Assembly: GCA_964395275.1 (NCBI GenBank)
Contig: CAYNBQ010000002.1
Location: forward strand, 16,731-80,730
Source of the DNA: an uncultured Verrucomicrobiota bacterium
Lineage (GTDB): Bacteria; Verrucomicrobiota; CALLYA01; CAYNBQ01
Direction: 5' to 3'
Length of the DNA stretch: 64,000 nucleotides
The translations under genes were made by a program, and so were the position numbers. Positions within the stretch are counted from its first letter, which is position 1. Each line of letters opens with the position of its first letter. A model generated the notes under the pieces. It worked only from the letters and a program-made list of their open reading frames with translations, searched no databases and was not told where the DNA came from. Positions 29,599 to 60,355 of the stretch are shown in pieces.

Positions 29599-29610
29599 AT
29601 CGCAGAAGAC

Positions 29611-34505: not shown

Positions 34506-35195
34506 GTGAAGCTCTCGATCATCGTGCCCGTACTGAACGAAGAGGCCACGTTGCGCACGCTTCTGGAACGGGTGAACGCCGTCGAATTGCCCCTGGAAAA
34601 GGAGATCATCGTCGTCGACGACGGATCGACCGACCGAACCGCCGAAATCGCCGAGGAAGCCGCACGTTCGCTTCCCGTCCGCATCATCCGGCATCCGGAA
34701 AACCGCGGAAAGGGAGCGGCCGTGCGCACCGGGTTCGCCGAAATGACCGGGGATTTCGTCGTCATCCAGGACGCGGACCTCGAATACGATCCGGCCGAAT
34801 ACGTCCAGCTCATGCGGCCGCTGATCGACGGGGTCGCCGACGCCGTCTACGGGGCCCGCTTCCTTGGCGGCCCGCATCGGGTCCTCTATTTCTGGCACTA
34901 CGTCGGCAACCGGTTCCTGACGCTGGTCACCAACGCGCTTTTCAACATCAACCTCAACGACATGGAGACCTGCTACAAGGCCATGCGGACCGACATGGCC
35001 CGGCGGCTGCGATTGAAGTGTTCCCGGTTCGGCATCGAACCGGAAATCACCGCCCAGCTGGTCAAGAAGGGCGCCCGGATCTACGAGACCCCGATCTCCT
35101 ACTACGGCCGGACCTACGAGGAGGGGAAAAAGATCCGCTGGCACGACGCGCTCTCGGCCCTGGGCGTTCTCATCCGCGAACGATTTACGGCTTGA
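34506..35195 (+). CDS. Glycosyltransferase family 2 (polyprenol-phosphate glycosyltransferase, DPM1/GtrB-like, soluble)
   Basis: ORF 34506..35195 with GTG start. LSIIVPVLNEE...VVDDGSTDRT...IQDADLEYDP. Confidence 0.8.
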   Translation: MKLSIIVPVLNEEATLRTLLERVNAVELPLEKEIIVVDDGSTDRTAEIAEEAARSLPVRIIRHPENRGKGAAVRTGFAEMTGDFVVIQDADLEYDPAEYVQLMRPLIDGVADAVYGARFLGGPHRVLYFWHYVGNRFLTLVTNALFNINLNDMETCYKAMRTDMARRLRLKCSRFGIEPEITAQLVKKGARIYETPISYYGRTYEEGKKIRWHDALSALGVLIRERFTA

Positions 35196-35299
35196 TTCCC
35201 GCCGGCGCTTCGTCAGCATACGGGCCTTTCGACCGGGTCGGCGGCCGCGATCCGGGATCGGAAATCTTTCGAACGCCCCTTTTGCCCGAGGAGAAGAAC

Positions 35300-36583
35300 A
35301 TGGCGAAAAGCATCGAGAAGGTCGGCGTCGTCGGGCTCGGATACGTCGGGCTGCCCCTGGCCGTGGCCTTCGCCCGCCACATGCCCGTGGTCGGCTTCGA
35401 CATCAGCGAAAAACGCGTCGCGCAGCTCCGCGCCGGGGAGGACCTCACCGGGGAAACCTCCGCGGACGACCTGCGCAATCCGAACCTTTTCCTCACCTCC
35501 GAGGCGTCCCGCCTGCGCGGATGCGACGCGATCATCGTGGCCGTGCCGACGCCCGTCACGCGGGCGCGGGAACCCGATCTGACCGCCCTTCGTTCCGCCA
35601 CCGAGATCGTGGCGCGGCAGATCACCCCGGGCACCGTCGTCGCCTACGAGAGCACGGTCTACCCCGGCGTCACCGAGCGCATCTGCCTGCCGATCCTCGA
35701 GGAGAAATCCGGCCTGAAACTCGGCCAATTCCATCTGGGCTACTCGCCGGAACGGATCAACCCGGGCGACCGCGAACACACCGTCGACCGGGTCGTCAAG
35801 GTCGTTTCCGCATCCGATCCGGAAACGCTCGAAACGCTGGCCGAACTCTACGGCAAGGTCGCCAAGGCCGGCGTACACAAGGCCCCGAACATCATGACCG
35901 CCGAGGCGGCCAAGGTGATCGAGAACATCCAGCGCGACCTGAACATCGCCCTGATGAACGAGTTGTCCATGATCTTCCGGCTCCTCGGGATCCGGACCCG
36001 CGACGTCCTCGACGCGGCGGCGACCAAGTGGAATTTCCACCGGTACACGCCGGGGCTCGTCGGCGGCCATTGCATCGGCGTCGATCCCTATTACCTGACC
36101 TATCGATCCCTGGAACTCGGACATCATCCCCGGGTCATTCTCTCCGGGCGGGACGTCAACGACGGCATGGGACGTTACGTGGCGGATCTGACCCTGAAAC
36201 GCCTCAGCGAGGCCGGCAAGGTCCTGAGCCGCAGCACCGCCTACGTCATGGGGCTCACCTTCAAGGAGAACGTTCCGGACATGCGCAATTCGCGCGTCGT
36301 CGACGTCATCGGCCGGCTGCGGGAGTTCGGGGTCGACGTCGTGGGCTGGGATCCCCTGCTCGCCGACGAGGACGTCCGATCCGAATTCGGGATCGAGAAC
36401 GTGCCGCTCGAGAAGATCCGGAAGTTCGACGTCGCCGTGGTCTCGTGTCCGCACGACGCCTTTCGTTCGATCGACCTGGAAACCCTGGCGCAACGCATGC
36501 AGCCCCCCGTTCTGATCGACATCAAGGGGCTCTACGACCCCGACGACGCGATCCGCGCCGGTTTCCTCTACGAATGCCTCTAG
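35300..36583 (+). CDS. UDP-N-acetylhexosamine 6-dehydrogenase (nucleotide-sugar dehydrogenase, WbpA/TviB/WecC-like)
   Basis: Frame of ORF 34382..36583 from ATG 35300, with GAGGAG RBS at 35288-35293. VGVVGLGYVGLPLAVAF is a Rossmann motif; GGHCIGVDPYYL has the catalytic Cys. Confidence 0.85.
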   Translation: MAKSIEKVGVVGLGYVGLPLAVAFARHMPVVGFDISEKRVAQLRAGEDLTGETSADDLRNPNLFLTSEASRLRGCDAIIVAVPTPVTRAREPDLTALRSATEIVARQITPGTVVAYESTVYPGVTERICLPILEEKSGLKLGQFHLGYSPERINPGDREHTVDRVVKVVSASDPETLETLAELYGKVAKAGVHKAPNIMTAEAAKVIENIQRDLNIALMNELSMIFRLLGIRTRDVLDAAATKWNFHRYTPGLVGGHCIGVDPYYLTYRSLELGHHPRVILSGRDVNDGMGRYVADLTLKRLSEAGKVLSRSTAYVMGLTFKENVPDMRNSRVVDVIGRLREFGVDVVGWDPLLADEDVRSEFGIENVPLEKIRKFDVAVVSCPHDAFRSIDLETLAQRMQPPVLIDIKGLYDPDDAIRAGFLYECL

Positions 36584-36650: not shown

Positions 36651-36959
36651 ATGAAGACGGACCAACCCATCCGCGGCGCCGAAGGCGGCGTCCTTCTCGA
36701 CGTCCGGCTCGTTCCGCGCGCGAGAAGGGACGAGGTCGAGGGGATCTACGGCGACAGCCTCAAGATCCGCGTGGCCGCCCCTCCCGTCGAGGGACGCGCG
36801 AACGAGGCCCTGCTCCGTTTCCTGGGCAGGAAACTCGGCGTGTCCCGGTCCCGTTTCGAGATCCGCAGGGGACGCACCTCCCGCCGCAAGCTCGTCTGGA
36901 TCGACGGCGTCGACGAGGAGGCCGTGCGTCGCGCCCTGGGCCTCGCACAGCGGGGCTGA
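36651..36959 (+). CDS. DUF167 (YggU) family protein
   Basis: ORF 36651..36959. LLDVRLVPRARRDEVEGIYGDSLKIRVAAPPVEGRANEAL is a YggU signature. Confidence 0.7.
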   Translation: MKTDQPIRGAEGGVLLDVRLVPRARRDEVEGIYGDSLKIRVAAPPVEGRANEALLRFLGRKLGVSRSRFEIRRGRTSRRKLVWIDGVDEEAVRRALGLAQRG

Positions 36960-36965
36960 CCTCCC

Positions 36966-36980
36966 CCGCGGCCGCCGCGG
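36966..36980. terminator. GC-rich hairpin (ccgcgg-ccg-ccgcgg) between the convergent DUF167 and isomerase genes
   Basis: 6-bp perfect stem with 3-nt loop in the 42-nt convergent intergenic region. No U-tract. Confidence 0.25.
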
Positions 36981-37001
36981 CGGCGGCGGACGCACGCCGG
37001 A

Positions 37002-38411
37002 TCAGCCGAGATGCCGGGCGACGTCCCACCCGAGGTAGGTGGCCATCGCCTCTTCGACGGCGTCGGCGACCTCTCCGCGGGTGGCCGCCACGTGATGCTC
37101 GAACCCGTTCTCGCAGATGTAGCGGAGCAGGCCCTGGAACCCCGGGATGCGCACCACCCCGTAGCCGCCGAAGGTCGAAAGAGGATCGTCGGTGAACTCG
37201 CCCTGCCCCACGTAGGCCGCAATCTCGCCCCGCACGTCGTCGGTGGAAACCCGGCAGAAGGTGAATCCGCCCGGCCGGATCCGACCCACGATCGTCCCGT
37301 AGCTCTTCGCCTTGCCGACCGTTCCGGCGATGATCTCCTGGAAATCCATGTGGTGTTCCTGCAGGAAATCCTTCGGCAGATTCGAACAGTGGAAGACCAC
37401 TCCCCGATCGGGATCGTCCCCGTAGTTGTTGTTCCAGTCCAGGAGGGCCGCCGGTCCTCCCGAGGCGCTCTGCAGGGCGCACATCCCGATCAACCCCGCG
37501 ATGTCCGTTTCGCAGGCGCTCGGGCGCATCGAGTTCGACATCATGCTCATGACCGTGCAGGGGACGACGCCGTAGTACTCCTCGATCGACGTCCAACACT
37601 GGATGGCCGTGGCCGAAAGGTCGTTCTCGGTCATCCATTCCTCGATCACCACCGCGAGTTTCGCCATGCGGACGAGACTTTCGTCCGGCACCCCGTCGAC
37701 GCTCGTGTAGGAGCGCACGGATTCGAGCTTTTCCCGGACGCTATTCGCCCCGTCGTCCATCGAGGTCGCCCGGCCGAAGATCTCCGAGAGATCGATGGTC
37801 TCCACGCTGATGCCCGCCGATTCCAGGATCTTCTCGCTGAAGCGCACCGTGTTGAACGACGCCGGCCGCGCGCCGATCACGCCGAGCCGCATGCGCCGCA
37901 GGGTCCTGACCACGCGGCAGACGGCGGCGAACCGGCGCAGATCCTCCCGGAAGGAGGCGCTCTGCGGATCGACCGTGTGCAGATCGGTCAGCGAATAGGC
38001 GATGCCGTACTGGCGCAGGTTGTTGCAGACGGACATCTTGCCGCAGAAGCTGTCCCGCCGATCGCGGATCGTCATCCGGTCTCGATCGTCGGCGAAGGCG
38101 TGCACCAGGACGGGAACCTCCAGATCGGAATAGCGGATGGCGTTGGCCACGGCGCGTTCGTCGCCGAAATTCGGCAGCGTGACGAGGATCCCCATGATGT
38201 CGTCGCGCCGCTCGCGAAAGAGATCCCCGCAGCGTTTCGCTTCCGCGAGGCTCTCGACGGCGCCCATCTTGGTTTCGTCCTCGCCGACGATGACCGGTTC
38301 GAACCCCTCTTCTTCGAGCACGTCGAGAATGGTCTGCCGCCCCGTGGCGCAGAGATGATCCGGAAAGAACCCGCGGTTTCCCACGATGACGCCGATCGGA
38401 AGCTTTTCCAT
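37002..38411 (-). CDS. L-fucose/L-arabinose isomerase family protein
   Basis: ORF 37002..38495, trimmed to ATG 38411 (MEKLPIGVIVGNRGFFPDHL). FucI/AraA-like fold over its full 469-aa length. Confidence 0.65.
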   Translation of the reverse strand: MEKLPIGVIVGNRGFFPDHLCATGRQTILDVLEEEGFEPVIVGEDETKMGAVESLAEAKRCGDLFRERRDDIMGILVTLPNFGDERAVANAIRYSDLEVPVLVHAFADDRDRMTIRDRRDSFCGKMSVCNNLRQYGIAYSLTDLHTVDPQSASFREDLRRFAAVCRVVRTLRRMRLGVIGARPASFNTVRFSEKILESAGISVETIDLSEIFGRATSMDDGANSVREKLESVRSYTSVDGVPDESLVRMAKLAVVIEEWMTENDLSATAIQCWTSIEEYYGVVPCTVMSMMSNSMRPSACETDIAGLIGMCALQSASGGPAALLDWNNNYGDDPDRGVVFHCSNLPKDFLQEHHMDFQEIIAGTVGKAKSYGTIVGRIRPGGFTFCRVSTDDVRGEIAAYVGQGEFTDDPLSTFGGYGVVRIPGFQGLLRYICENGFEHHVAATRGEVADAVEEAMATYLGWDVARHLG

Positions 38412-38538
38412 GCTGCGGATCTCCGCGCGCCGCCCCGCCGAATCGGGACCGGCACGTCGGCCGGAAGCATACGAAGGTTCTTTGGAATCTCTCAACGCAT
38501 TTCGGTAGGCTCGGCGGAACCGGGGAGAGGAGATCCCG

Positions 38539-39255
38539 ATGCGCTACGAAACCCTGCGCAGAGCCGTCTGCGAAGCCAACCGTACGTTGTGGAAAGCCCG
38601 CCTGGCGCCCCTGACCTGGGGCAACGTCAGCGCGGCGGACGCCGACGCGGGCGTCCTGGCGATCAAGCCGAGCGGGGTCCCCTACGAAGACCTCGAACCG
38701 GAGATGATTCCCGTCGTCTCGATCCGCGACGGGACGCCGGTGGAAGGCGATCTCCTTCCCTCGTCGGACACTCCCGCGCATCGCCTTCTCTACCGCCGTT
38801 TCCCCGGAATCGGAGGGATCGCCCACGCGCATTCCCCGTATGCGACCGCCTGGGCGCAGGCCCGCCGCCCGATTCCCTGCCTCGGAACGACCCATGCCGA
38901 CGCCTTCCGCGGAGAGATCCCGGTCACCCGGCCGCTGCGGGAGGCCGAGATCGCGGCGGACTACGAAGAGGAAACGGGAAAGGTGATCGCCGAGCTTTTC
39001 GAAGCCCCCTCCGCTCCGGATCCGATGGAAATGCCGGCCGTTCTCGTGGCCTCCCACGGCCCCTTCACCTGGGGACGATCGGCCCGCGAGGCCGTCGTTC
39101 ATGCGATCACCCTGGAGGAGATCGCGCGCATGGCCGTGCTCACCTTCCGGATCGCGCACGACACGCCGCCGATCCCGGACGTTCTCCTGGAGCGTCACTT
39201 CACCCGCAAACACGGCCCGGGATCCTACTACGGGCAGCGCGGAGAAACCGGCTGA
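38539..39255 (+). CDS. L-ribulose-5-phosphate 4-epimerase / class II aldolase family (AraD/FucA-like)
   Basis: ORF 38539..39255. TWGNVSAAD...VLAIKPSGVPYEDL...PSSDTPAHRLLYRRFPGIGGIAHAHSPYATAWAQ is very AraD-like. Confidence 0.8.
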   Translation: MRYETLRRAVCEANRTLWKARLAPLTWGNVSAADADAGVLAIKPSGVPYEDLEPEMIPVVSIRDGTPVEGDLLPSSDTPAHRLLYRRFPGIGGIAHAHSPYATAWAQARRPIPCLGTTHADAFRGEIPVTRPLREAEIAADYEEETGKVIAELFEAPSAPDPMEMPAVLVASHGPFTWGRSAREAVVHAITLEEIARMAVLTFRIAHDTPPIPDVLLERHFTRKHGPGSYYGQRGETG

Positions 39256-39280
39256 GACGCCGGCCGCCGGCGATCTCCGT

Positions 39281-41257
39281 TCAGTAGGGCAACTGGATGA
39301 CGGATTTCGAGATCAGGGTGAATCCGATCGCCAACATGCCCGTCAGTCCGAGACCGCAGGTGGCGCCCGCCGTGAGCACCGGCACGTACCGGCGCCACTT
39401 GTCGCGGCCGAACCGGGGTTGGAAGACGTAGTGGCCGAGAAGGGCCCCGGCGAAGAGCAGGACCTGGTTGTGCGGCCAGGCGCCGATCCCGGTCAGCAGC
39501 CCGTAGAAGAGGAAGAGCGGCCCGTTGAAGATCATGAAGAGGGCGTAGAGCCCCAGCCCGCCGCCGAGACCGAGGGCGATGTATCCGGGCTTGATGGCGT
39601 CGAACAGCAGCGAGTTGCCGGTGCGGGTTCCCGTCGCCCAGAGGCACTGCCAGTACGCCTGGATGCCCCACATCTTGGCCGCGTAGGGATAGGCCGCCGA
39701 CGGAATCTGGTTGAGCTTCCACAGGAAGGAACAGAAGAGGACGCTGGTGATCAGCAGCAGGGGGAAGATCAGCAGTTCCACCTTGATCAGGCTGGTGAAC
39801 TTCGTCCGGGTCAGGGTGAGTTCCCGGAAGGTCTGGGTCATCCATCCGTAGTCGGCCAGGGGGACGGGAGCGAACCAGATGGCGATGCCGTTGTACCCGA
39901 GCATCCGCGTGCTGAGGATGAACGACGCCTCCCGGAAATAGCTGAACTGCACCGGTTGCCCCGTCAGGCCGACCATCCGCGCCGAAATGTACGAGTTGAA
40001 CGGCGTCCAGACCAGGGCGTAGAAGACCAGCAGCCACCACGGAAACGTCGGAACGAGACGGTGGCAGAGGTAGACGAGCGACAGGGCCGCCGTGAGCCAG
40101 ACGCCCACCGCCAGGAGGACGGGGATGTCGCCCCGTTCCTTCGAACCCCGCTGGATCTTGCGTTTCTCGCCCCGCCGCAGGAGGGCGTGCGCCGCGGATC
40201 CGATCCCGATGAAGGCGATCGTCAGGGTCGTTCCGATCCGGATGGACATCCAGAGGTCGAGATCGTTGGCGATGTACGTCTGGATGGTGTCCATCCCCGG
40301 TTTCCACGAGGTCAGGATGTCGTGGTTGTAGAGAATGGGGTTGAGAACGATCATCGTGCCGATCGAGGCGATCGTGGCGCCGATGACCAGCCGGAAGGGA
40401 AGAACGAATCCGATCAGGATGAAGAGAAGGTTCGTCCCCAGCCCGACCAGGGCCGCCGGCAGGATTCCCTGGGTCTTCTGCGTCAGGTCGATGAAGGGGA
40501 TCGGAAGGATCTGCACCGGCTTGTTCATGATACCGCCGGTGATCGTCGGCAGCACGACGTAGACGATCCCGAAGACGATGCCGATGGCGGTGCCCGTGGT
40601 GAAGACGCGCCAGCGCCAGGTTTCCTTCGGCTCGTAGGATTCGGCCAGGGCCGTGGCGCCCTGCGCCGCGATCGGGGCCATCGGGAAGGGCAGCTGCTCG
40701 ACGTCGCTGGTGATCCGGAAGAGGGTGTAGCCGAGGCAGAACATCACGATGCGCCCGAGCAGGCCGCTCAACACGATCACGCCGATCGCCGGGAGCCATT
40801 CCCGGCTGAAGATCGTCCGCAGCAGGTAGACCGGCGAACCCCGCGGCGGGGCGATCCACGGGTTCTGGCTGAGTTCGCCGACGATTCCGAACTGCTCGGC
40901 CTGGATCGACTGCACCAGGAACTGGTTCCAGAGGATCTGGAAGAAGGGGCCGCCCGATACCACCAGCCCGCCGGCGAGCGCGAAGAGGACCACGATCTCC
41001 TGCCGGGTCAGACGCGTGAAACAACGGCGCGAGACCTCCGTGAAGAGAATCACCGTGACCCACTGCGCGGCCGTGTGCATCCCCTGTTCCGATCCCGCCA
41101 CCAGCGTCAGATAGATCGCGCCGGGCAACATGACGAAGGCCAGGAAAAGGCCCCCGATGACCGACTTCATGTTGAAGCCGTCCCGGTACGGTTCCCGGGC
41201 CTCCTGGAAGGCGGCCGACCCCCATTCCTGCAGCAGTTCTTCCTGAATCGACGGCAT
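39281..41257 (-). CDS. Polytopic integral membrane protein of unknown function (paralog of 46609..48570), third gene of the giant-protein operon
   Basis: ORF 39281..41257 (658 aa). At least 14 hydrophobic segments, rich in W, F, Y and G, with no recognisable catalytic motif. RBS GGGAGAAGAG lies 17 nt gap after the upstream stop. Confidence 0.7.
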   Translation of the reverse strand: MPSIQEELLQEWGSAAFQEAREPYRDGFNMKSVIGGLFLAFVMLPGAIYLTLVAGSEQGMHTAAQWVTVILFTEVSRRCFTRLTRQEIVVLFALAGGLVVSGGPFFQILWNQFLVQSIQAEQFGIVGELSQNPWIAPPRGSPVYLLRTIFSREWLPAIGVIVLSGLLGRIVMFCLGYTLFRITSDVEQLPFPMAPIAAQGATALAESYEPKETWRWRVFTTGTAIGIVFGIVYVVLPTITGGIMNKPVQILPIPFIDLTQKTQGILPAALVGLGTNLLFILIGFVLPFRLVIGATIASIGTMIVLNPILYNHDILTSWKPGMDTIQTYIANDLDLWMSIRIGTTLTIAFIGIGSAAHALLRRGEKRKIQRGSKERGDIPVLLAVGVWLTAALSLVYLCHRLVPTFPWWLLVFYALVWTPFNSYISARMVGLTGQPVQFSYFREASFILSTRMLGYNGIAIWFAPVPLADYGWMTQTFRELTLTRTKFTSLIKVELLIFPLLLITSVLFCSFLWKLNQIPSAAYPYAAKMWGIQAYWQCLWATGTRTGNSLLFDAIKPGYIALGLGGGLGLYALFMIFNGPLFLFYGLLTGIGAWPHNQVLLFAGALLGHYVFQPRFGRDKWRRYVPVLTAGATCGLGLTGMLAIGFTLISKSVIQLPY

Positions 41258-41274
41258 CGGCTCTTCTCCCGGAC

Positions 41275-44200
41275 TCAGGCTTCCTCTTCTTCGATCTTCC
41301 CGGAGAGGATGTCTTCGGTGCGGCTGTAGTAGATGTCCTTCTCCTTGTCAGGCAGAACGCGCCAGAGCAGGATGGTCTTGCGCAGGCGGTTGAAGAACTC
41401 CCGGTTCGTCCGGCGCCAGGCCGTCTCCTCGCCGCTGATCCGGCGGATCGCCAGGCGGAAGGTCAGTTTCCCCTCGATCACGTCCGAAGGCAGGGAGATC
41501 AGTTCCACGTCCTGTTGCACACCGAAGTCGTAGGGCGCCAGGCGGCACCGGAAGGAGATCACCGCGAGGCCCTCTTCGATATCGTCGCGGAACCGGACGT
41601 TCTCGGCGCAGAAATGCCCGACGGCCTCCTCGCGATGCGCCCGGAAATAGTCGACGAGATAGGCGTTGAAGGGATGGACCTGGTTCTCGTCGATGATGAA
41701 CGGCAGGTCGAGAATCCACCGGTCGCCCTCGGGATCTCCCACCTGCCAGGTCCGGGCGATGTCGGGGGTCGCCAGGCGGTGGGCCAGCGAGGCCGGGTAG
41801 AGACTCGATCCGATCGTCACCAGCATGACCATCGCCACCGCCAGGAAGGTCGACATCGACGAGTAGTTCAGCGTCAGGCCCGCCAGCCAGTGGTTCTTCG
41901 CCAGCGTGAAGGCGACCGCCTGCCCCAGAAGATATCCGGCGATGGCCCCCAGCACCGCGTAGACGCAGGATTCGGCGATGAACAGACTGGAGATGTGGAC
42001 CGGGGAAAGGCCGACCGAACTGTAGGTGTGAATCTCCTTCTGCCGTTCGTAGACCGATCCGAGCATCGTGTTGAAGATGATCAGTCCGGCGATGAGAAGC
42101 GGGATCGCCATCGTGCCCAGGCCGGAGAGCGAACTCGCCCCGATCGAGTTGAAAAGCATCGCCGTCTCGCCCGGCTTTTCCCCCACGTAGATCGCCAGCG
42201 ACCAGCCCGACAGCAGTTTCTCGACGAACCCCCTCAGGTCCATCGATTCGTCCAGGGGCCGCGCCGCGATCGAACGCACCGTCCCCCCGCGCATCATCAG
42301 GGTCTTGAAGGGCAGCAGCGCGACCGCCGAGGCCGGGAAATAATCGTATTCCTCGAGCGCGGCCGCGGTCGTGCCCGTCTCCTCGTCTCGACGCACCTGT
42401 TCGGCCCTCCGGACGAGGAAACTCGCCGGGGTCAGCGGATCGTCGTTCAGATCGACGATGTCGTTCCAGCCCGGCAGGCCTTCCTCCGGCTGCGACCGGA
42501 CCAGCCCGATGACCGTAAGCCGTTCCCCGAAGAGCCGTACCGCCGCCGTCCCGAGCCGGTCCGGCGTGATCCCGATCGCCTCCGCAAGGCTGTCGGGCAG
42601 GATGCAGACCTTGCGATCCCCCGGTTCGAACCATCGCCCGGCCGTCAGGGCCCGCCCCACGCCCGTGATCCGGATCTCCTCCGGCTCGAGTCCCACGGCG
42701 CCGGCGATCTGCGTCATGCGCGTCGGTTCGTCGGCGTTCGAGATCTCCATGGCCAGGTATTCTTCCGGCCGCGCCGCCGTCAGCCACGCCCGCGCCGCGA
42801 CCACGAACCCCTCTTCGAAGGCGCGCCGGAACCGGCGGAACTCCGGTTCCTCCAGCGGCGCCCAGTCGAGGTTCCGGTAGAGCACCCCCCGGTACTCCGC
42901 CTTCCAGGGAAGCGGATAGCGGTTCATCCGCAGGTATCCCTGCACGGAGACGAAGGAGATCACCGTGAAGGTCAGGAGAATCAGCGCCACGCAGGTCAGC
43001 GTCGTCTTCATCTTCCGCCGGCGCATGTAGGAAACGCCGAGATTGAACGCGGTGAGCGCCGCCCCGAAGCGGTTCACGTCGCTGTAACGCAGCGCCACCA
43101 TCCCGGATTTCAGGCGGCGCAGTTCCCGGTTGAACTTCGACATCACCAGGGAGGTCACCACCACCGCGAGGGTGATGATCACGAACCCGAGAAAGATCAG
43201 CAGGGGCGTCATGGTGATTGCGAAGGCCGGGTGCACCATCGCCAGCAGCAGGAGTACGACGGCGAAGACACCCACCACGCCCGCGATCCGCGCGCGGATG
43301 TCCGCGAAGGCGAAGACGAGCCGTTCGGTGAAGAAGGCGAAGGGCAACGCCATCGCCAGGTAGAAGATCACCCCACGGACCACGTCGTTCGAGGTGCTGA
43401 TCACGTCGGGATACACCCGCGACGCGAAGGCCCACGCGTCCGAAGTCGCTTCCACGTACCGGCTCCAGAGCCGGTCCTTTCGGTAGTTCGCCGCCCGGTC
43501 CAGCGCCGCGCGGGCCTCCCGGTGCATTCCCGCCAGAAACTCGCTCACGATGCCGTGCCGCGTCAGGGCCGCAAGACGTTCCTCGTTCAGGTACCAGAGG
43601 TCCCGGGCCACCCGTTCCGGAACCTCCTTCATGACCCCGTGGACGGGGCGGAATCCGTACGTCGAACCCTTGTGATTCTCGATCACCGTCGAGACCAGCC
43701 GTTCCACCTCCTGCCGCCGCTTGCGCCAGGCGTGGTCCGTGCCTCCGTTCCGGGCCTCTTCCACGAGCGTCCGGAACGTTTCGCGGGCCTCCCGGAGATG
43801 CCGGAGCTCCTTCTCGGTCGGCGGGACGATGCCCCGGGAAAGCAGTTCTTCGGGATCCGCGTCAAGGATCTTCGAAAACAGCTCTTCCACGGTCTTCGGC
43901 TGCAGGCTTGCCGGCGCCCTCGCCAGGGCGTCGGGACCGCTTTCCGCCCGGTCGAGGCACCCCCGGACGGCGTAGCCGAGTTCGATCAGCGGCGTGGCGG
44001 CGTTGACCAGCACGAGCCGTTTGCCGACCAGCCCGAGGCTCATCGTCAGTTTGAACCGGTCGTCCGGCCTCGTGAAGATCACCACGCAGGGTTCGATGTA
44101 CGAGGTGGCGTACCGAGGAACCATCGGCAGCGAAAACCCGAAGAACTGCGGTTCGGCGTCGGTGCGCCCGTCCAGGATCTGCAGGTACTGCAGGGAGAGC

Positions 44201-46605
44201 AGGTAGCGCGGATCGACCAGATCCACCAGGGCCGTCGCGGAACAGTCGAAAAGCACGGCCGTGATCCCGAGGGCGGATCGCGAGGGGATGTGGATTCGAT
44301 GGAAGTTGTACTTCCGGTCCCCTTCCCCGCCGAGGTCGTGGGCCATGGTCACGTGCCCGGTTTCTTCGTCCAGGAGAAAGGCCTGGAGTTCGGCGCCGGC
44401 GGTCCAGAGGAACCCGGGGAACGAGAATCCCCCGTCCTCGTCGGCGATCGTCACGTGTTCGGTGTGGATTCCGTACAGGGGTTTCGGGAATCCCCGCAGA
44501 TAGGCCCCCTTCATTCCCCGTTCGGGACGGACCATCAGCAGGGCGCCGGGAACGGGCGTGTCCGCGATGAGGCTCTTGGCCTGTTCGAGACGGACGGCCC
44601 GGCCGTGGATGGCCGGGTAGAGACGGAACTTCTCGTAGATGTGCAGGTCGATGTCGACGTCGTCGGCCAGCATCCGGCAGATCGTCGCCGCCATGCGGCC
44701 GCCCAGGAGGAGGTTGTCGAGGTTCACCTGTTCGACCGTGTCTTCCGGCGTGTCGACGAGCCGGCGCGCGTCTTCGCAGGTCGCCACCGTGACGGCGGGG
44801 ATCGCCATCGAAACGATCTCGCTTTCGAAGGCGAAGGTCTCGCTGAAGAACGATTCCGCGCTGGTTCCCCGCTGCCCCGTGATCGTCTCGGCGAAGATCG
44901 CCGCCGCCGGCACGCCGAGCGCGTCGCCGAGGCCCGGTTGCCCCATTTCGGCGTCGCCGATGATGCGGCTGCGCAGGGCCCGTCCGAGCGGAACGTATTC
45001 GCGCTGGCGGTAGATGTCGCGGTTGTCCTCGTATCCCCCCCGGATGAAGAGGCCGACCTTGGGGGAGCCGCTGGTGAGATCGAACCCCACGAAGAGAACC
45101 GGCGAACGTTTCCGGGCCCGTTCCCGTTCGGAGACCCGCCGGAACAACGGGGCGCGGGGCCGATTCTTCCTGGCCTCTTTCACCAGGCGGTCCAGCTCCG
45201 GCGTGTGCTCGTATTTCTTCTGGAGACGGACGATGGCTTCGCGCGCCTTACGGCACAGGGCGATCTCCTCGGCCGCGCCCGGCCGGTTCCTCAGCTCCGG
45301 ATCGTTCCGGAGATCGCGGATGCGCGTGCGGAGATCCGCCAGGGCGCCCTTGAGGTCCCCCATGTCCCGGAAGGCGTTGCGCACCCCTTCGTAGGTTTCG
45401 ACGTAGGCGTTGGCCCGGTCCCATTCCGTGCTGAAGGGGGGAACCGCGAGAACCTCGATTTCCCGGCGGACCTTTTCCTCCTCCTCGCTCTTCGATTCGA
45501 GGCTCTCCCGGACGTCCGCATAGAGGTTCGTGATCGCCTCCAGCGTCGGGAATTCCCGCGCCAGACGTTCGAAATCCGGCAGGCGCGCCCGCAGCATCTT
45601 CTCTTCGAGGGGGATCGCCAGCAGTTTGCGATGATGGCCGCCGTTCGTGTTGGCCTCGCTGAACCAGCGAATGAAGTTGGCGGCCCCGCTCATGCCCAGG
45701 AAATGCGCGTCGGTGAATACGAAGAGGACCGTCCGGGCCGGCGGATCCTCCGCGAACTGCCGGGCGGTTTCCAGGAGGGCCGCGGCGTTCCCGGCGGCTT
45801 CCGCTCCCGGGGCGCGGTTCGGCACCACGGAAACGGCGTCGTAGTACGCGGAGAGAATCACCCTCTCGTTCGCATGGTCCGGATCCGACCCGGGCAGCAG
45901 TCCGATGACGTTGTGCGCCGTGACCGTTTCCCAGTGCGACCCGCCCCACAATCGCGCCCGCTCGCCCCGGCGGGCGGCTTGGCGCAGCTCCTCGGCCCGG
46001 TCCGCGCGGCGCAGCATGAAACGCGGATAGTCCAGGGGCGCCGACAGAAGAGCGCGCTCCATTTCGGTGCGTTCCACCACGCGCGGGGGCAGGAAGACGA
46101 CGGCGCGGATCCCCAGTCCGGCGACCCGGACCCAGAAATCCCCGTCGGCGAAATCCTGCACGAGGATGCCTCCCTCGACGTCGGTGCCGTCGAGGTCCTC
46201 GTACGATCCGGCGTAGATCAGCGGACCTTCGATTCCCTCCCGGGGGGTCTTCGGCGGAACGCCCGCATTGGGCCATAGGGCGTCGACTTCCAGATCCATC
46301 CCGCCGACCTGCAGGCGGCCCGGCGCGTCGGGGACCGGAACGGTGACGTCGAACTCCTGCACCACGACGCGGTTCGTGCCGAGAATCTCCCCCAGTTCGG
46401 CCCGGATGTGTTCGAAGGCGTTCGAGGAACCGACCGATCCCGGCATCCTCGATTCGTCCGAGGTGAGAATCCGCAGGGTTTCCTCGATCCGGGAGCGGTC
46501 GAAGGGCGGCGCGGGGGAACCGGCCCGGGCGGGACCCGCGTTCCCGAGCAGGACCAGGATCGCCGCCGAGAGCAGCGGCAGTCGGATGAGTGCACGGTTC
46601 CTCAT
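41275..46605 (-). CDS. Giant exported multidomain protein: signal peptide + degenerate M28-peptidase-like domain + long extracytoplasmic region + TM cluster + FtsX/MacB-fold permease module + C-terminal cytoplasmic domain
   Basis: ORF 41275..46605 (1776 aa). Signal peptide MRNRALIRLPLLSAAILVLLGNAGPARA. M28-like HNVIGLLPGSDP...RVILSAYYDAVSVVPNRAPGAEAAGNAAALLETARQF...VLFVFTDAHFLGMSG with metal ligands substituted. FtsX TM1 TLTCVALILLTFTVISF, then a periplasmic domain, then MLGSVYERQKEIHTYSSVGLSPVHISSLFIAESCVYAVLGAIAGYLLG, an FtsX/MacB TM2-3 signature. Starts 3 nt after the upstream gene's stop. Confidence 0.8.
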   Translation of the reverse strand: MRNRALIRLPLLSAAILVLLGNAGPARAGSPAPPFDRSRIEETLRILTSDESRMPGSVGSSNAFEHIRAELGEILGTNRVVVQEFDVTVPVPDAPGRLQVGGMDLEVDALWPNAGVPPKTPREGIEGPLIYAGSYEDLDGTDVEGGILVQDFADGDFWVRVAGLGIRAVVFLPPRVVERTEMERALLSAPLDYPRFMLRRADRAEELRQAARRGERARLWGGSHWETVTAHNVIGLLPGSDPDHANERVILSAYYDAVSVVPNRAPGAEAAGNAAALLETARQFAEDPPARTVLFVFTDAHFLGMSGAANFIRWFSEANTNGGHHRKLLAIPLEEKMLRARLPDFERLAREFPTLEAITNLYADVRESLESKSEEEEKVRREIEVLAVPPFSTEWDRANAYVETYEGVRNAFRDMGDLKGALADLRTRIRDLRNDPELRNRPGAAEEIALCRKAREAIVRLQKKYEHTPELDRLVKEARKNRPRAPLFRRVSERERARKRSPVLFVGFDLTSGSPKVGLFIRGGYEDNRDIYRQREYVPLGRALRSRIIGDAEMGQPGLGDALGVPAAAIFAETITGQRGTSAESFFSETFAFESEIVSMAIPAVTVATCEDARRLVDTPEDTVEQVNLDNLLLGGRMAATICRMLADDVDIDLHIYEKFRLYPAIHGRAVRLEQAKSLIADTPVPGALLMVRPERGMKGAYLRGFPKPLYGIHTEHVTIADEDGGFSFPGFLWTAGAELQAFLLDEETGHVTMAHDLGGEGDRKYNFHRIHIPSRSALGITAVLFDCSATALVDLVDPRYLLSLQYLQILDGRTDAEPQFFGFSLPMVPRYATSYIEPCVVIFTRPDDRFKLTMSLGLVGKRLVLVNAATPLIELGYAVRGCLDRAESGPDALARAPASLQPKTVEELFSKILDADPEELLSRGIVPPTEKELRHLREARETFRTLVEEARNGGTDHAWRKRRQEVERLVSTVIENHKGSTYGFRPVHGVMKEVPERVARDLWYLNEERLAALTRHGIVSEFLAGMHREARAALDRAANYRKDRLWSRYVEATSDAWAFASRVYPDVISTSNDVVRGVIFYLAMALPFAFFTERLVFAFADIRARIAGVVGVFAVVLLLLAMVHPAFAITMTPLLIFLGFVIITLAVVVTSLVMSKFNRELRRLKSGMVALRYSDVNRFGAALTAFNLGVSYMRRRKMKTTLTCVALILLTFTVISFVSVQGYLRMNRYPLPWKAEYRGVLYRNLDWAPLEEPEFRRFRRAFEEGFVVAARAWLTAARPEEYLAMEISNADEPTRMTQIAGAVGLEPEEIRITGVGRALTAGRWFEPGDRKVCILPDSLAEAIGITPDRLGTAAVRLFGERLTVIGLVRSQPEEGLPGWNDIVDLNDDPLTPASFLVRRAEQVRRDEETGTTAAALEEYDYFPASAVALLPFKTLMMRGGTVRSIAARPLDESMDLRGFVEKLLSGWSLAIYVGEKPGETAMLFNSIGASSLSGLGTMAIPLLIAGLIIFNTMLGSVYERQKEIHTYSSVGLSPVHISSLFIAESCVYAVLGAIAGYLLGQAVAFTLAKNHWLAGLTLNYSSMSTFLAVAMVMLVTIGSSLYPASLAHRLATPDIARTWQVGDPEGDRWILDLPFIIDENQVHPFNAYLVDYFRAHREEAVGHFCAENVRFRDDIEEGLAVISFRCRLAPYDFGVQQDVELISLPSDVIEGKLTFRLAIRRISGEETAWRRTNREFFNRLRKTILLWRVLPDKEKDIYYSRTEDILSGKIEEEEA

Positions 46606-46608
46606 CGG

Positions 46609-48570
46609 CTACTCGATGATCAGGACTCCCTCGATCGGGAAGAAGAAGTGGATCAACAACCAGGTGAACAGAATGAAGGCCTCGCCGAGAATCAGCCCGA
46701 GCGCCGCCGGATAGAGTTTCCGCCAGAGTTTCACGCCGCCGAGCCAGGTCACGACCGACTTGATCGACCATCCGAGGAAGACCGACCACCAGTAGCGGCC
46801 CATCGTCCAGGTCGTGTTCACCACGAACCCGAGCGGATGGAAAGGCCACCAGAGAAACTGCTTCCTCATGAACACCAGGAAGAGCGTGAACAATCCTCCC
46901 AGGGCCATGTCGGGATACTCGTTTCCGCGGAAATACTGGTTGCGATAGATCGGCGTCGACACGATGCCCGCGCACCAGCGCGCGGCGCCCCGCGTCCACC
47001 AGCCCAGGTTCGGGATCGCCGTGCGGTACATCACCCAGATGGACGGGATGTGGCAGGCGAGCATCGACACCAGGATCGCCAGCGTGATCATCAGGAACAG
47101 GACCCGGCGGTTCAGCTTCGCCGTATCCCCGATCTTGAAGGCCTGGAGGACCTGGGGCTGGATGCAGGTGGCCGCATCCACCAGGTTCCAGCCGATCATC
47201 GTCAGGGAGGTCACGTTCTGCCGGGAAAGATTCTCGGAGCCGAACGGGAGGAAGGCCATCTGGTGCGGGTAGACGCCGAACCAGTAGACGAACAGGCCGG
47301 TCTCCGAAATGATGCGCGTAAGCACCATGATCGCCAGGAAATACCAGCCGAACATGATCGCCGCCAGCCCGAGCGACAACCCCGCCGCCCAGCACCACGC
47401 CAGGATCCCCGCCATCCCGAAGACGATGCCGAAAACGGCCGCGCGGTAGCTGATCGGTTCGTCGGAATCGTCGATGCGTCGATCGTTCGTGAAGGCCTTG
47501 CGCAACACCGCCAGGAAATGCTTCCGCCCCATCCAGAGGTAGAAGAGACCGATCGCGGCCACGGACCCGATGTGCAGCGCGCGGAAATACTCCCCGTGCC
47601 GTTCCGCGCCCGCCGTGATGCGCACGATCTCCTGCACGTACCGGAAGAAGTAGAAGAAGACCAGGCTGAAGCCGACCTCCCAGGTCAGCATGTAGGCGAT
47701 GCCGATCATCCCGAAATAGAAGCCGATCGAGATCCGGTTCAGGACGTTCCAGGGACGATCCGAGAAGAGGTTCGCGAACCAGCGCGGATAGAGGTTGAAG
47801 TGCGGGAAGGACGGCGCGTAGGCGTGAATCCCGTTCACCAGGTAGACGATCACGGGAATCAGGAACGCGATCCAGAAGGCCCGTTTCCGGAAGAAGGGGG
47901 AGGCGCCCGTGCGTCCCGGTCCCTCGGCGGTCATGTCCAGGGGCACCTGGGCCAGGGGGAAGAGCAGGCGCTCGTTCTCGATCCATTGCTTGCGCAGCAC
48001 CACGCAGATGCAGATCGTCACGAAAAAGATCAGGAAGAGAAAGGGCGTCCAGACCGCCAGCGGACGCACCCAGAGGTGCCAGGGGATGTCGTGGAAGCCG
48101 GCCCCCTCCGGCAATCCTTCGAAAAGCCACCGCACCACGGGGGCGTTGGGATCCTTGGAAGGCACCAGCCAGTCGCGGATGTACCGGTGAAATCCGTTCA
48201 CCGGGTCCGCCCACTGGTTCTGAGGGGTCGCGTAGTAGATCGGACCGACCAGTCCCAGGTAGAGATAGGTCGCGAACTGCTGGCCCGGGATCCCGGACAT
48301 CACCACCAGCGTGCAGTAGACGAAGAGAAGCTCGCTGCGGCGCAACCCGCGCATCCGCGTGAAACGGCGGACGAGGAAATTGATCGCCAGAAGGACGAGC
48401 AACGGATAGAGGGCCGAGCGCGGCAGATGTCCCGTGCCGATGAGGTCATAGCGCAGGAAGGCCGAGAAACATCCGGCGACGGAGATGCCGACGACCAGCG
48501 CCAGCGCGAGGACTCCCACGGCTGCGGCACGCATCAGCGAGGTGCGTTCTTCCGCGCCGCGCTCCCTCAT
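46609..48570 (-). CDS. Polytopic integral membrane protein of unknown function (paralog of 39281..41257), first gene of the giant-protein operon
   Basis: ORF 46609..48570 (653 aa). N-terminal region aligns to the other copy (FTRMRGLRRSELLFVYCTLVVMSGIPGQQF versus FTRLTRQEIVVLFALAGGLVVSGGPFFQIL). At least 14 TM segments, W/F-rich. Confidence 0.7.
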   Translation of the reverse strand: MRERGAEERTSLMRAAAVGVLALALVVGISVAGCFSAFLRYDLIGTGHLPRSALYPLLVLLAINFLVRRFTRMRGLRRSELLFVYCTLVVMSGIPGQQFATYLYLGLVGPIYYATPQNQWADPVNGFHRYIRDWLVPSKDPNAPVVRWLFEGLPEGAGFHDIPWHLWVRPLAVWTPFLFLIFFVTICICVVLRKQWIENERLLFPLAQVPLDMTAEGPGRTGASPFFRKRAFWIAFLIPVIVYLVNGIHAYAPSFPHFNLYPRWFANLFSDRPWNVLNRISIGFYFGMIGIAYMLTWEVGFSLVFFYFFRYVQEIVRITAGAERHGEYFRALHIGSVAAIGLFYLWMGRKHFLAVLRKAFTNDRRIDDSDEPISYRAAVFGIVFGMAGILAWCWAAGLSLGLAAIMFGWYFLAIMVLTRIISETGLFVYWFGVYPHQMAFLPFGSENLSRQNVTSLTMIGWNLVDAATCIQPQVLQAFKIGDTAKLNRRVLFLMITLAILVSMLACHIPSIWVMYRTAIPNLGWWTRGAARWCAGIVSTPIYRNQYFRGNEYPDMALGGLFTLFLVFMRKQFLWWPFHPLGFVVNTTWTMGRYWWSVFLGWSIKSVVTWLGGVKLWRKLYPAALGLILGEAFILFTWLLIHFFFPIEGVLIIE

Positions 48571-48770: not shown

Positions 48771-48887
48771 ACTGTACGCGAGAGCCTTCCCCCGGACCCT
48801 GCCGCCGGGGGGCCAAACCGGCGCCCATACTACGCGGGCGCTTCCCGCGGGTCAACAGGCTGCGTCCGCTTCCCCTCTTTCCTCCCT

Positions 48888-50084
48888 TTACAACGGAAGC
48901 CGGTTCAGTTCGAACAGCGGAAGAAGGATGGCCAGCGCCACGAAAAGGAAGACGATTCCCATCACGATGATCATGCCTGTCTCCAGGATCGTGCTCATCC
49001 GTTCGGTACGGGCCTCGATCACCGTCTCCAGAAGATCGGAACCGTGCGCCAGCAGCGAGGAGACCTCTCCGCTCGCCTCGCCCGCCCTGGCCAGATGATG
49101 GATCACCGGCGGCAGGGCCCCGCTTTCCTCCAGCGCGCGGGACAGGGGGATTCCGCTGCGCACACGGCCCGAAACCCCTTCCAGCCGAGCGGCCAGCGCC
49201 CGGTTGCCCACCGACGACCGGGCGATTTCCAGCGCCTCCGCCATCCGCACGCCGCCGCTGAGCAGCGAGGCGAGCGTCCTCGCATAACGGGCCGATTCGG
49301 CGTCGGAGAGCAGACGTCCCGCCAGGGGGATCCGGAGTTTCAGCCGGTCGATCTTCTCCCGCGCCGCCGGACGCGACGCCCAGCGTCGAAACCACAGGAC
49401 CCCCGCCGCCAGAAGAAGCAATCCCGGCAACCAGGCGGACGCCGCCAGCCGGCTCAGGGCCGCCACCACCCGCGTCGGCCACGGCAGTTCCCGGCCCAGC
49501 TCCGTGAAGAGGCCGAAGATCCTCGGCGCCACGAAGGTCAACAGGAACGTGAAGACCACCGCTCCGAATCCCAGCAGGATCGCCGGGTAGAGCATCGCGG
49601 TGCGGACGCGGTCCGCAAGGCGCGCCGAGCTCTCCAGTCCCTCCGCGGCCCGGTCCAGAACGGTCGGCAAGACCGCCGCCCGCTCGCCGGCCCGGAGCAG
49701 TCCCACGATTTCCCGGGGGAAGACATCGGGGAAGGCCGCCGCCGCGCTTCCGAGCGATTCCCCGCGCGAAACCGATTCGTGCAGCGAATGAACGATCGCC
49801 CTCAGTCCGGGATCTTCCACCTGGTCGGCCAGGGCGCGCAGGGCCTGGGCCAGCGGCATGCCGGCGCGCACCATGGCCGCCAGTTGCCGCAGGGCGAGGG
49901 CCAGATCCGCCCGCCCCACCTTCGCCCGCCGCCGCACGCGGGTGCCGCGCGCGGGACGCAACTCCTCCGGAAAGAGCCCACGGCGCACCAGCGTCTCGCG
50001 CGCCGCGCGTTCGCTCGGGGCCTCCACCGTGCCCCGGGCCGGAGATCCCGCCGAATCGAAAGCTCGGTAGTCGAACGAAGGCAT
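48888..50084 (-). CDS. gspF: Type II secretion system inner-membrane platform protein GspF
   Basis: ORF 48888..50084. MPSFDYRAFDSAGSPARGTVEAPSERAARETLVRRGLFP is the canonical GspF N-terminus. Two GspF repeats and three TM helices. Confidence 0.85.
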   Translation of the reverse strand: MPSFDYRAFDSAGSPARGTVEAPSERAARETLVRRGLFPEELRPARGTRVRRRAKVGRADLALALRQLAAMVRAGMPLAQALRALADQVEDPGLRAIVHSLHESVSRGESLGSAAAAFPDVFPREIVGLLRAGERAAVLPTVLDRAAEGLESSARLADRVRTAMLYPAILLGFGAVVFTFLLTFVAPRIFGLFTELGRELPWPTRVVAALSRLAASAWLPGLLLLAAGVLWFRRWASRPAAREKIDRLKLRIPLAGRLLSDAESARYARTLASLLSGGVRMAEALEIARSSVGNRALAARLEGVSGRVRSGIPLSRALEESGALPPVIHHLARAGEASGEVSSLLAHGSDLLETVIEARTERMSTILETGMIIVMGIVFLFVALAILLPLFELNRLPL

Positions 50085-50091
50085 CGGGGCT

Positions 50092-51783
50092 TCAGTCCTG
50101 ATCCCGCATCGTCACGCGCACCACTTCCGAAAGCGTGGTCAACCCCGCCCGCACCTTCTCCAGACCGTCGTCGCGCAGGGTGCCCATGCCCCGGCGCGAC
50201 ATCAGCTCCCGCAAGGCCGCCTCCCCCTCCCCGTCGTGCACCATGCGGCGCACGTCGCGGTCGAAGGAAATCAGCTCGAACAACCCGATCCGCCCGAGGT
50301 ACCCGGTTCCGCCGCATCGGTCGCATCCGCGCCCCCGCCGCGGGCGCAGCCCGGCCGACTCCTCCGCGGTCAGGCCGATCGCGCGCGCCAGGTCGGGATC
50401 GACCGGGACCTCCTCCGCGCATTCCGGGCAGATCCTCCGGACCAGCCGCTGGGCCAGCACCGCAAGAAGACAGGCCGACAGGAGAAAGGATTCCACGCCC
50501 ATGTCGATCAGGCGCGTGATCGCCGAAACCGCGTCGTTCGTGTGCAGCGTCGAGAGCACCTGGTGTCCCGTCAGCGAGGCCCGCACCGCGATCGCCGCCG
50601 TTTCCAGGTCGCGCATCTCCCCGATCAGGATCACGTCCGGATCCTGCCGCAGCACGTGCCGTAGCCCCTGCGCGAAGGTCAGGCCGATCTGCGGTTTCAC
50701 CTCGATCTGCCCGATCCCCCCGATCTGGTACTCGACCGGTTCCTCGATCGTGATGATGTTGCGGCGCCTGTCGTGGATGTGCCGGATGGCCGAGTACAGG
50801 GTCGTCGTCTTCCCGCTGCCCGTGGGCCCCGTCACCAGGAGCAGCCCGTGGGGCATGCGCAGGAGGCGGTCGATGGTCCGGAAGATGCCTTCCGGCATTC
50901 CCAGGGCCTCGAGCGAATAGAGCATCGAGGCCGGATCCAACAGCCGCAGGACGACCCGTTCCCCGAAGGTGGTCGGCACCGTCGACACCCGGATGTCGAT
51001 CTCGCGGTCCCCGATCCGGATCCGCGCCTTGCCGTCCTGCGGAAGCCGCTGCTCGGCGATGTCCAGATCCGCCATGATCTTGATCCGGCTGACGATGCCC
51101 GGATACATCGACCGCGGCGGGGCGTTCTGTTCCTGAAGAACCCCGTCCACGCGGAACCGCACGCGCAGCTCCCGTTCGTACGGTTCGATGTGGATGTCGC
51201 TGGCCCGCGAGCGGACCGCGCGGAGAATCATCGTGTCGACGACCTCCACCACCGGCCCTTCGTCCGAACGACCGAGCAGATCCGCCTCCGTTTCGACGGA
51301 GGCGCTTCCCTCCTCCGGAAACTCCGGTCCGCTTTCCTCGGGGCTCAAGCCCGCGGCCTCGTAATAGAAACGGTTGATCGCCGAACGCAACGCCGACGGT
51401 CCCGCGACCACCACTTCGACCGGGGATTCCAGAAGAAGACCCGCGTCGTCGATCGCCGCCGTGTCCAGCGGATCCGCCATGGCCACGATCACGCGGCCAC
51501 CCGCGCGCCCGATCGGCAGGAGAAGATGTCTCCTGGCGAACCCGATCGGAATTCGCGCGACGAGTTCCTCCGGCACCGGCGCGCGATCGAGGGGCGGCGC
51601 CGGATCGAGGCGCAACGCCGCGGAAAGAGCCGATACGTACCGCTCCTCGTCCAGAACCCCCCCGGCGGCGAGCGCCTCGGGCAACCCGCCGGGCGCCTCC
51701 GCGCCCCGGCCGCGGAGCACTTCCTCGATCTGGTCGCGCGTGCAGACCCCGTCGCGCACGAGAATCTCGGCGATCGCCGACAT
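50092..51783 (-). CDS. gspE: Type II secretion system ATPase GspE
   Basis: ORF 50092..51783. Walker A GPTGSGKTTT, Asp box, Walker B VILIGEMRD, His box TLHTN, and the tetracysteine CPEC...CDRCGGTGY. Confidence 0.9.
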   Translation of the reverse strand: MSAIAEILVRDGVCTRDQIEEVLRGRGAEAPGGLPEALAAGGVLDEERYVSALSAALRLDPAPPLDRAPVPEELVARIPIGFARRHLLLPIGRAGGRVIVAMADPLDTAAIDDAGLLLESPVEVVVAGPSALRSAINRFYYEAAGLSPEESGPEFPEEGSASVETEADLLGRSDEGPVVEVVDTMILRAVRSRASDIHIEPYERELRVRFRVDGVLQEQNAPPRSMYPGIVSRIKIMADLDIAEQRLPQDGKARIRIGDREIDIRVSTVPTTFGERVVLRLLDPASMLYSLEALGMPEGIFRTIDRLLRMPHGLLLVTGPTGSGKTTTLYSAIRHIHDRRRNIITIEEPVEYQIGGIGQIEVKPQIGLTFAQGLRHVLRQDPDVILIGEMRDLETAAIAVRASLTGHQVLSTLHTNDAVSAITRLIDMGVESFLLSACLLAVLAQRLVRRICPECAEEVPVDPDLARAIGLTAEESAGLRPRRGRGCDRCGGTGYLGRIGLFELISFDRDVRRMVHDGEGEAALRELMSRRGMGTLRDDGLEKVRAGLTTLSEVVRVTMRDQD

Positions 51784-51787
51784 CCGT

Positions 51788-60353: not shown

Positions 60354-60355
60354 CG

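Follow-up and report, generated by a model that had tools for sequence, protein, structure and literature searches.

We analysed a 64,000-nucleotide stretch of DNA from an uncultured Verrucomicrobiota bacterium (assembly GCA_964395275.1, contig CAYNBQ010000002.1, positions 16,731 to 80,730; hereafter the window), and in particular a minus-strand open reading frame (ORF) at 41275..46605 that begins with ATG and encodes a protein of 1776 aa, referred to here as the giant protein. The G+C content of the window is 66%, and long ORFs that overlap one another by chance are plentiful. The codon-position G+C values of the giant gene (GC1/GC2/GC3 = 0.68/0.45/0.87) and the phase of the frame plot agree with the minus strand, the ORF at 41275..46605 is a real coding gene, and the ORF at 41515-46278 on the plus strand and the other large ORFs overlapping it are high-GC artefacts. 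A public protein (P0001) is identical to the giant protein. An earlier note on this DNA had proposed a 1776-aa protein here, and the ORF exists at the coordinates it gave; that note treated the protein alone, without the conserved operon described below, which proved to be the more informative part. We are highly confident of the giant protein at the level of its architecture, which comprises a signal peptide, a pseudo-M28 ectodomain, three transmembrane (TM) helices, a MacB/FtsX module and a C-terminal domain (all coordinates within the gene are on the minus strand). The predicted signal peptide is of the Sec type (aa 1-28, 46522..46605), with a hydropathy core at residues 5-24 and an ARA/G cleavage motif read from the sequence.

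The giant gene is the middle gene of a tight three-gene operon and is co-transcribed with both of its partners, which are polytopic membrane proteins encoded on the same strand. The upstream partner (46609..48570, 653 aa), whose stop codon lies 3 nt before the start of the giant gene, matched the Pfam families DUF6785 (449.7 bits, E 1.5e-134) and DUF6784 (96.7 bits, E 9.9e-28), both over the gathering threshold, while the downstream partner (39281..41257, 658 aa), named M658 here, starts 17 nt past the giant-gene stop. The next gene downstream, for a class II aldolase, is convergent, and the operon therefore ends after M658. At the other end, the DUF6785 gene is preceded by a gap of 317 nt, in which a promoter-like site (48827..48855, minus strand) possibly marks the start of the operon, although the evidence for this is weak.

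The M658 homologues number more than 2100, several of which carry a precomputed match to the oligopeptide transporter (OPT) family PF03169 and are named ‘peptide transporter’ by NCBI. One homologue with 66% identity (P0168) scored 30.3 bits against an OPT cut-off of 25.8, and another (P0177) scored 24.1 bits with a match spanning profile positions 106-621 of 623. M658 is best regarded as a distant member of the OPT superfamily; it resembles the OPT family (TC 2.A.67) in being polytopic and ~650 aa long and in having homologues that reach the OPT profile, but it would represent a very divergent branch and is paired with a giant FtsX-fold protein. Profile-profile comparison (hhalign) of M658 with DUF6785 gave a colinear alignment over 507 columns (probability 57%, E 1e-4), which suggests that the two partners are remote paralogues.

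The N-terminal head of the giant protein is related to the M28 peptidases, as the earlier note had proposed. Peptidase_M28 (PF04389) matched aa 232-313 (E 8.8e-10; 39.1 bits against a cut-off of 21.3), and a phmmer search of solved structures aligned aa ~90-320 to the PA domain and M28 core of Bacillus YwaD (6hc6, E 2.8e-5). The Pfam match covers profile positions 1-78 of 193 only, because the M28-like fold is split by a charged, helix-prone and lineage-specific internal insertion of ~180 aa (aa ~321-500, 45106..45645; aa ~320-505 at its widest), where most relatives have 10-40 aa; in a relative lacking the insertion (P0036) the match spans positions 12-189 of the 193. The first part of the fold (aa 29-320, 45646..46521), delimited by the Pfam match, the alignment to YwaD and family statistics, bears a PA-like insert close to its N-terminus, and the second half of the fold follows the insertion (aa ~501-650, 44656..45105). 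Neither the insertion nor the PA-like insert featured in the earlier note.

Active-site positions were mapped directly onto YwaD and, by way of an insertion-free family member, onto the Aeromonas aminopeptidase (AAP). The top structure match of that family member was 2anp, the E151H mutant of AAP, because the family has His at the position of the catalytic Glu. In the giant protein, the positions of His97, the bridging Asp117, the catalytic Glu151, Glu152 and His256 of AAP are occupied by Y254, A270, H301, F302 and S595, respectively, while Asp99 is kept as D256 and Asp179 as D509 (the latter assigned by motif alone). Of the five M28 ligands (His-Asp-Glu-Asp-His), four are substituted, and so is the catalytic Glu. 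The motifs from which the earlier note had read such substitutions were located as it stated (SAYYDA at 252, PGAEAAGN at 266 and FTDAHF at 297), and alignment to M28 enzymes confirmed the loss, which moreover runs throughout the family. Among 131 relatives having the M28-like segment, the His97 position is most often Tyr (Y 65, P 25, H 8), the bridging-Asp position is Asp in three (Q 43, A 24, S 19), the Glu151 position is mainly His (H 83, D 18, E 13) and the Glu152 position is frequently Phe (F 45, H 14, Y 14). D256 is kept in 128 of the 131, and D509 and E596 are kept in 30 and 29, respectively, of 31 relatives. Judged from these alignments, the di-zinc site is lost family-wide with the fold retained, and this is not a sequencing accident. 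The pattern of residues retained there is what would be expected of a pocket conserved for binding, although a new chemistry is conceivable, and the head is probably a binding scaffold rather than a peptidase.

Between the head and the membrane lie a conserved beta-rich extracytoplasmic domain (aa ~651-900, 43906..44655), delimited from the family alignment, and a helical stalk towards the membrane (aa ~901-1065, 43411..43905), of which ~76 aa are lineage-specific. Neither the beta-rich domain (aa ~650-900) nor the stalk gave a Pfam or PDB sequence match, and a profile of the mid-domain searched against the PDB returned a single chance-level match (E 0.34).

The membrane portion was examined by hydropathy and with an AlphaFold2 (AF2) model of aa 1061-1776 built from a 50-sequence alignment (pLDDT 87.4, pTM 0.71), which together give the order three long helices, elbow helix, TM1, a domain of ~275 aa, TM2-4 and the C-terminal domain. 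The three extra TM helices (aa ~1066-1169, 43099..43410; model residues 6-38, 43-70 and 74-109) also contain invariant columns, including E1094, close to where the first helix meets the cytoplasm, and the motif H1125-P-x-F1128 at the outer end of the second. They are followed by an amphipathic elbow helix and TM1 of the FtsX module (aa ~1179-1218, 42952..43071; model helices 119-136 and 138-158), a MacB-type (Porter/Sabre-like) extracytoplasmic domain of mixed alpha/beta structure between TM1 and TM2 (aa ~1219-1495, 42121..42951), and TM2, a cytoplasmic coupling helix (VYERQKEIHTYSSVGLSP), TM3 and TM4 (aa ~1496-1612, 41770..42120). Given a cleavable signal peptide and an odd number of extra helices, the head lies outside the membrane and the FtsX unit begins on its inner side, as it must. 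FtsX (PF02687) matched aa 1500-1608 (E 9e-14; 52 bits against a cut-off of 25.5), and the loop between TM2 and TM3 carries the signature MLGSVYERQKEIHTYSSVGLSP. Across 50 relatives the coupling-helix motif N-T-M-x-G-x-V-x-E-R-x-x-E is nearly invariant.

The module has the hallmarks of a type VII ABC permease: an N-terminal elbow helix, four TM helices of which the first two enclose a large extracytoplasmic domain of the Porter/Sabre type, and a cytoplasmic coupling helix with an ER..EI motif between TM2 and TM3. Its fold matches MacB, LolC/E, YtrF and HrtB. The scores of the region against NCBIfam equivalog models were far under their cut-offs (MacB, 24.8 against 966; LolCE, 16.5 against 362; FtsX_Gneg, 21.6 against 255), so that the giant protein belongs to the superfamily but is not MacB, LolC/E or FtsX proper. 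Directly after TM4 comes a conserved, compact and confidently modelled cytoplasmic C-terminal domain (aa ~1613-1776, 41278..41769) with the topology beta-alpha-beta4-alpha2, predicted to have a Bet v 1/START- or KA1-like fold. No significant Pfam or PDB match to it was found by sequence or profile search; its sequence identity to SRPBCC (START/Bet v 1/AHSA1) and KA1 domains is 6-12%, and it has fewer strands than a canonical START domain. The Pfam score, helix order and coupling-helix signature thus sustain the earlier assignment of the C-terminal unit to the FtsX fold, and hydropathy, the model and conservation do the same for the three extra helices that were said to precede it. The additional cytoplasmic domain that was claimed also exists, as the model and its conservation indicate, but it measures ~165 aa, not the ~140 aa given.

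A profile of the module formed by the three extra helices, the FtsX unit and the C-terminal domain was searched against 1.84 billion cluster representatives (clustered at 50% identity), and at least 1519 of them matched at E<=1e-30. The best 150 all had E < 1e-188 with the whole module matched, at lengths of 721-3053 aa. Shorter members lacking the M28-like segment (721-1342 aa) were considered as a minimal variant and set aside, as most start mid-domain and look like contig fragments. The M28-like segment was present in 130 of 154 family members inspected, and Big_5, PA or LysM-like elements are added in some members. A scan of GTDB species representatives, made with a 145-aa alignment, gave at least 574 loci; the best 80 are nearly all from Candidatus Poribacteria, together with one Planctomycetota bacterium. 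Overall, the family occurs in several bacterial phyla, including Planctomycetota, Poribacteria and Abditibacteriota, and in one metagenome-assembled genome (MAG) of a Thermoproteota archaeon, while Armatimonadota, Nitrospirota and Hydrogenedentota are indicated through the partner gene only. In public records the family members are called ‘FtsX-like permease family protein’ or, in the case of the protein of the archaeal MAG, ‘M28 family peptidase’.

The gene order, with the giant gene followed by M658 and preceded or not by the DUF6785/DUF6784 gene, recurs in an 87%-identical relative (L086), in L087, in Abditibacterium utsteinense (L088), in a 3.6-Mb assembly (L089), in a locus whose M658 homologue is assigned to Nitrospiraceae by NCBI (L090), in an unclassified bacterial MAG (L004) and in the Thermoproteota archaeon MAG (L002). 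All five M658 homologues that were looked up adjoin a giant gene, and in the Poribacteria-dominated set M658 starts at most 1.5 kb downstream of the giant gene in 66 of 77 eligible loci, with two copies in 11. Furthermore, a metagenomic protein of 2120 aa (P0152) carries a signal peptide, M28-like head, FtsX module, C-terminal domain, DUF6785 and DUF6784 in a single chain. Adjacency in distant lineages and this natural fusion are strong evidence that the giant protein and its OPT-like partners work as one complex. The archaeal cluster also encodes a second FtsX-fold protein (L002:8709-11726, 1005 aa) with a CarboxypepD_reg-like N-terminus, whose C-terminal tail of ~160 aa showed no match to the C-terminal domain of the giant protein.

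A candidate ATPase partner was found beside some members of the family. Of 70 eligible loci in the Poribacteria-dominated set, 61 have the gene for a LolD/MacB/FtsE-type ATPase (TIGR02211, E 2.5e-70) downstream and in the same orientation. At L010:13278-15498 and in more than 70 other Poribacteria loci, M658 is followed by a 324-aa protein without a family match, a 139-aa PqqD-like protein of the ribosomally synthesised and post-translationally modified peptide (RiPP) recognition element (RRE) type, which is peptide-binding, and the LolD-type ATPase; no counterpart of this trio was found in the window. In L004 the genes that come next in the cluster encode a 375-aa FtsX permease of the ordinary kind and two ABC ATPases, and the cluster ATPases of Poribacteria and L004 are 64-73% identical. 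Two ABC ATPases of the window were considered as the missing subunit and rejected: MlaF (61180-61914), which has its own MlaE/MlaD set, and Wzt (29823-31628), which has its own Wzt_C domain, with identities to the cluster ATPases of the relatives in the range of 28-39%. The window’s best match to those ATPases is the one encoded in the mlaE-mlaF-mlaD operon (60350-62933, plus strand). Given the near-invariant coupling helix, an ATPase encoded in trans is likelier than no ATPase at all, and the giant protein would then be coupled to ATP through it.

Our preferred reading, held tentatively and at a little less than even probability, is that the giant gene encodes the central subunit of a widespread envelope machine in which an ATP-driven ligand-binding head works with OPT-like permeases. 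By analogy with MacB, LolCDE and FtsEX, a LolD/FtsE-type ATPase would dock on the coupling helix that joins TM2 to TM3, and the TM helices would relay ATP binding and hydrolysis to the extracytoplasmic domains and set these in motion; the gene for this ATPase lies in cis in Poribacteria and in one further lineage, and presumably in trans in the case of the giant protein. The head, with its dead peptidase fold, would bind, without cleaving it, a ligand that, by analogy with inactive M28 relatives, is most plausibly a free peptide or protein N-terminus, and would pass it to, or gate, the associated OPT-like channel or channels; the OPT-like nature of the partners suggests a peptide-like ligand passed to or gated at the channel. 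The PqqD-like peptide-binding (RRE) gene conserved in the Poribacterial clusters speaks for this reading. A bolder version, which we regard as doubtful, is that the operon encodes a new class of membrane machine, present in bacteria and at least one archaeon, in which OPT-fold permeases are physically joined to a mechanotransducer of the type VII ABC kind. The head would capture peptide or protein N-termini outside the cell, and motion driven by ATP, or by protons in lineages without a cis ATPase, would feed them into the OPT-like channel or gate it, in a form of hybrid primary/secondary transport without described precedent. Several observations weigh against the envelope-machine reading. The only ABC ATPases in the 64-kb window are those of the Mla and Wzm/Wzt systems, with none of the MacB/LolD/FtsE type, and no adjacent cognate ATPase was found in L086, L087, L088, L089 or L090, several of which are on long contigs. 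The M658 of the window gave no match to Pfam OPT (PF03169) at E<=10, the case for a peptide ligand depends on distant homology and on the parallel with other inactive M28 relatives, and no paper on the giant-protein family or on DUF6785 was found in the literature searched.

The same ATPase results bear on a rather improbable alternative, that the machine is independent of ATP because the ABC partner was lost in most lineages, leaving the FtsX-fold module as a structural or proton-motive-force-coupled adaptor of OPT-like secondary transporters whose START/KA1-like C-terminal domain takes the position on the cytoplasmic side that a nucleotide-binding domain would otherwise have. The failure to find a cognate ATPase in the window or beside the gene in the five loci L086 to L090, the extra domain that directly follows TM4, and the invariant Glu and His in the extra TM helices are all in keeping with it; however, the family hardly varies in the coupling-helix motif, through which MacB and LolCDE contact their ATPase, the identity between the ATPases of Poribacteria and the unrelated L004 suggests a cognate ATPase subfamily, and the gene for an ABC ATPase often lies in another part of the genome. 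A similarly low probability attaches to a head that has been repurposed, with D256, H301, D509 and E596 forming a new mononuclear-metal or metal-free catalytic centre that processes a substrate before OPT-like uptake, for which glutaminyl cyclase, an enzyme of the M28 fold, is a precedent. The conservation of these four residues, as counted above, argues for a functional pocket, but position 301 is also Asp, Glu, Gln or Arg in many members, and the positions of His97, Asp117, Glu152 and His256 are chemically diverse, which a binding pocket fits better than a fixed catalytic centre.

Two further explanations were weighed. The giant protein resembles FtsEX with EnvC, PcsB or RipC in that an FtsX-fold mechanotransducer would control an extracytoplasmic domain with an inactive peptidase fold (EnvC itself has a degenerate, catalytically inactive LytM/M23 domain), and it might accordingly be a regulator that carries out no transport, in which ATP-powered movement of the dead peptidase domain activates extracytoplasmic hydrolases or surface-remodelling enzymes or brings them into place. 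We consider this improbable, since the family occurs in a MAG of the Thermoproteota, a phylum generally held to have no peptidoglycan, the obligate partners are polytopic and transporter-like rather than hydrolases, and the LysM matches in the family are weak and under the Pfam cut-off, with none in the window protein. Least likely of all, in our judgement, is a conventional MacB-type exporter or extractor of peptides, toxins or lipoproteins that shares only its regulation with the OPT-like neighbours. Its fold does match the MacB, LolC/E, YtrF and HrtB group, and L004 and L002 have, respectively, a second, ordinary FtsX permease with two ATPases and a second FtsX protein; against this stand the single-chain fusion in P0152, which argues for physical association, the near-obligate OPT-like adjacency across distant lineages, and the fact that the clusters inspected showed neither a MacA-type adaptor nor a LolA/B-like gene.

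With regard to the surroundings of the operon, the ORFs at 37741-39213 (minus strand), 36760-37638 (minus) and 39101-41329 (plus) were considered as extra operon genes and ruled out by frame-specific GC. The real genes there are those for the class II aldolase (38539-39255, plus) and for a fucose-isomerase-like protein with a fucose-isomerase C-domain (37002-38495, minus); together with a DUF167/YggU gene (36651-36959, plus) they form a group of sugar-metabolism genes that converges on the end of the operon. Directly upstream are genes of a type II secretion system (T2SS; 48888-54673, minus) for a secretin, GspE and GspF, the secretin being 961 aa long with an N0 domain that starts only at aa 333. 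This adjacency is probably coincidental, and the T2SS (gspD-E-F) was rejected as a partner, as unrelated genes occupy this position in L086-L090 and the 317-nt gap with the promoter-like site intervenes. Further along, a 469-aa LpxC-FabZ fusion (54657-56066, minus) has LpxC at aa 33-301 and a FabZ/FabA-like dehydratase at aa 334-457. A surface-polysaccharide region in two parts (14124-20553, minus, and 29599-36583, plus) encodes a Wzz/GNVR/ParA-like co-polymerase-kinase, a GHMP kinase-nucleotidyltransferase fusion, a second GHMP kinase, the Wzt ATPase with Wzt_C, two GT4 glycosyltransferases and a UDP-glucose dehydrogenase, whose ORF seems ~300 aa too long owing to overlap with the frame of another gene.

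Comparison with known systems helps to place the family. Relative to MacB, LolC-LolE, FtsX, YtrF and HrtB, the giant protein adds three TM helices, an ectodomain of ~1040 aa and a folded cytoplasmic domain of ~165 aa, and whereas MacB, LolC-LolE and FtsX are partnered with MacA/TolC, LolA or EnvC, it is partnered with OPT-like permeases. Unlike in FtsEX-EnvC, its dead domain is M28 rather than M23, covalently fused and far larger, the family has an archaeal member, and its partners are transporter-like. Inactive heads of the PA/M28 fold that have lost their zinc ligands and serve binding or gatekeeping roles in membrane complexes are known from nicastrin, nicalin and the transferrin receptor; these share the M28 fold with the giant protein but are eukaryotic, single-pass and without an ABC-type module. 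The component folds are already known, and the giant protein is annotated trivially in databases, but the combination of a pseudo-M28 head, three extra TM helices, a type VII ABC unit, a START/KA1-like domain and obligate OPT-like partners is undescribed in the literature searched.

Type VII ABC systems (MacB, LolCDE, FtsEX, BceAB and HrtBA) are the model for transmission of ATP energy across the membrane without passage of substrate, and every further member to be characterised has turned out to do a different job outside the cytoplasm. OPT-fold permeases are normally secondary transporters, and the OPT-like partnership, together with the natural fusion, suggests an unexplored pairing of an ABC-type motor with a secondary-transporter fold. 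DUF6785 and DUF6784 would gain a first functional context, and the family would provide a prokaryotic example of an M28 pseudo-enzyme serving as a receptor head as well as a new family of cytoplasmic domains. As Abditibacterium utsteinense is a named species that carries the gene pair, the hypothesis may be testable there.

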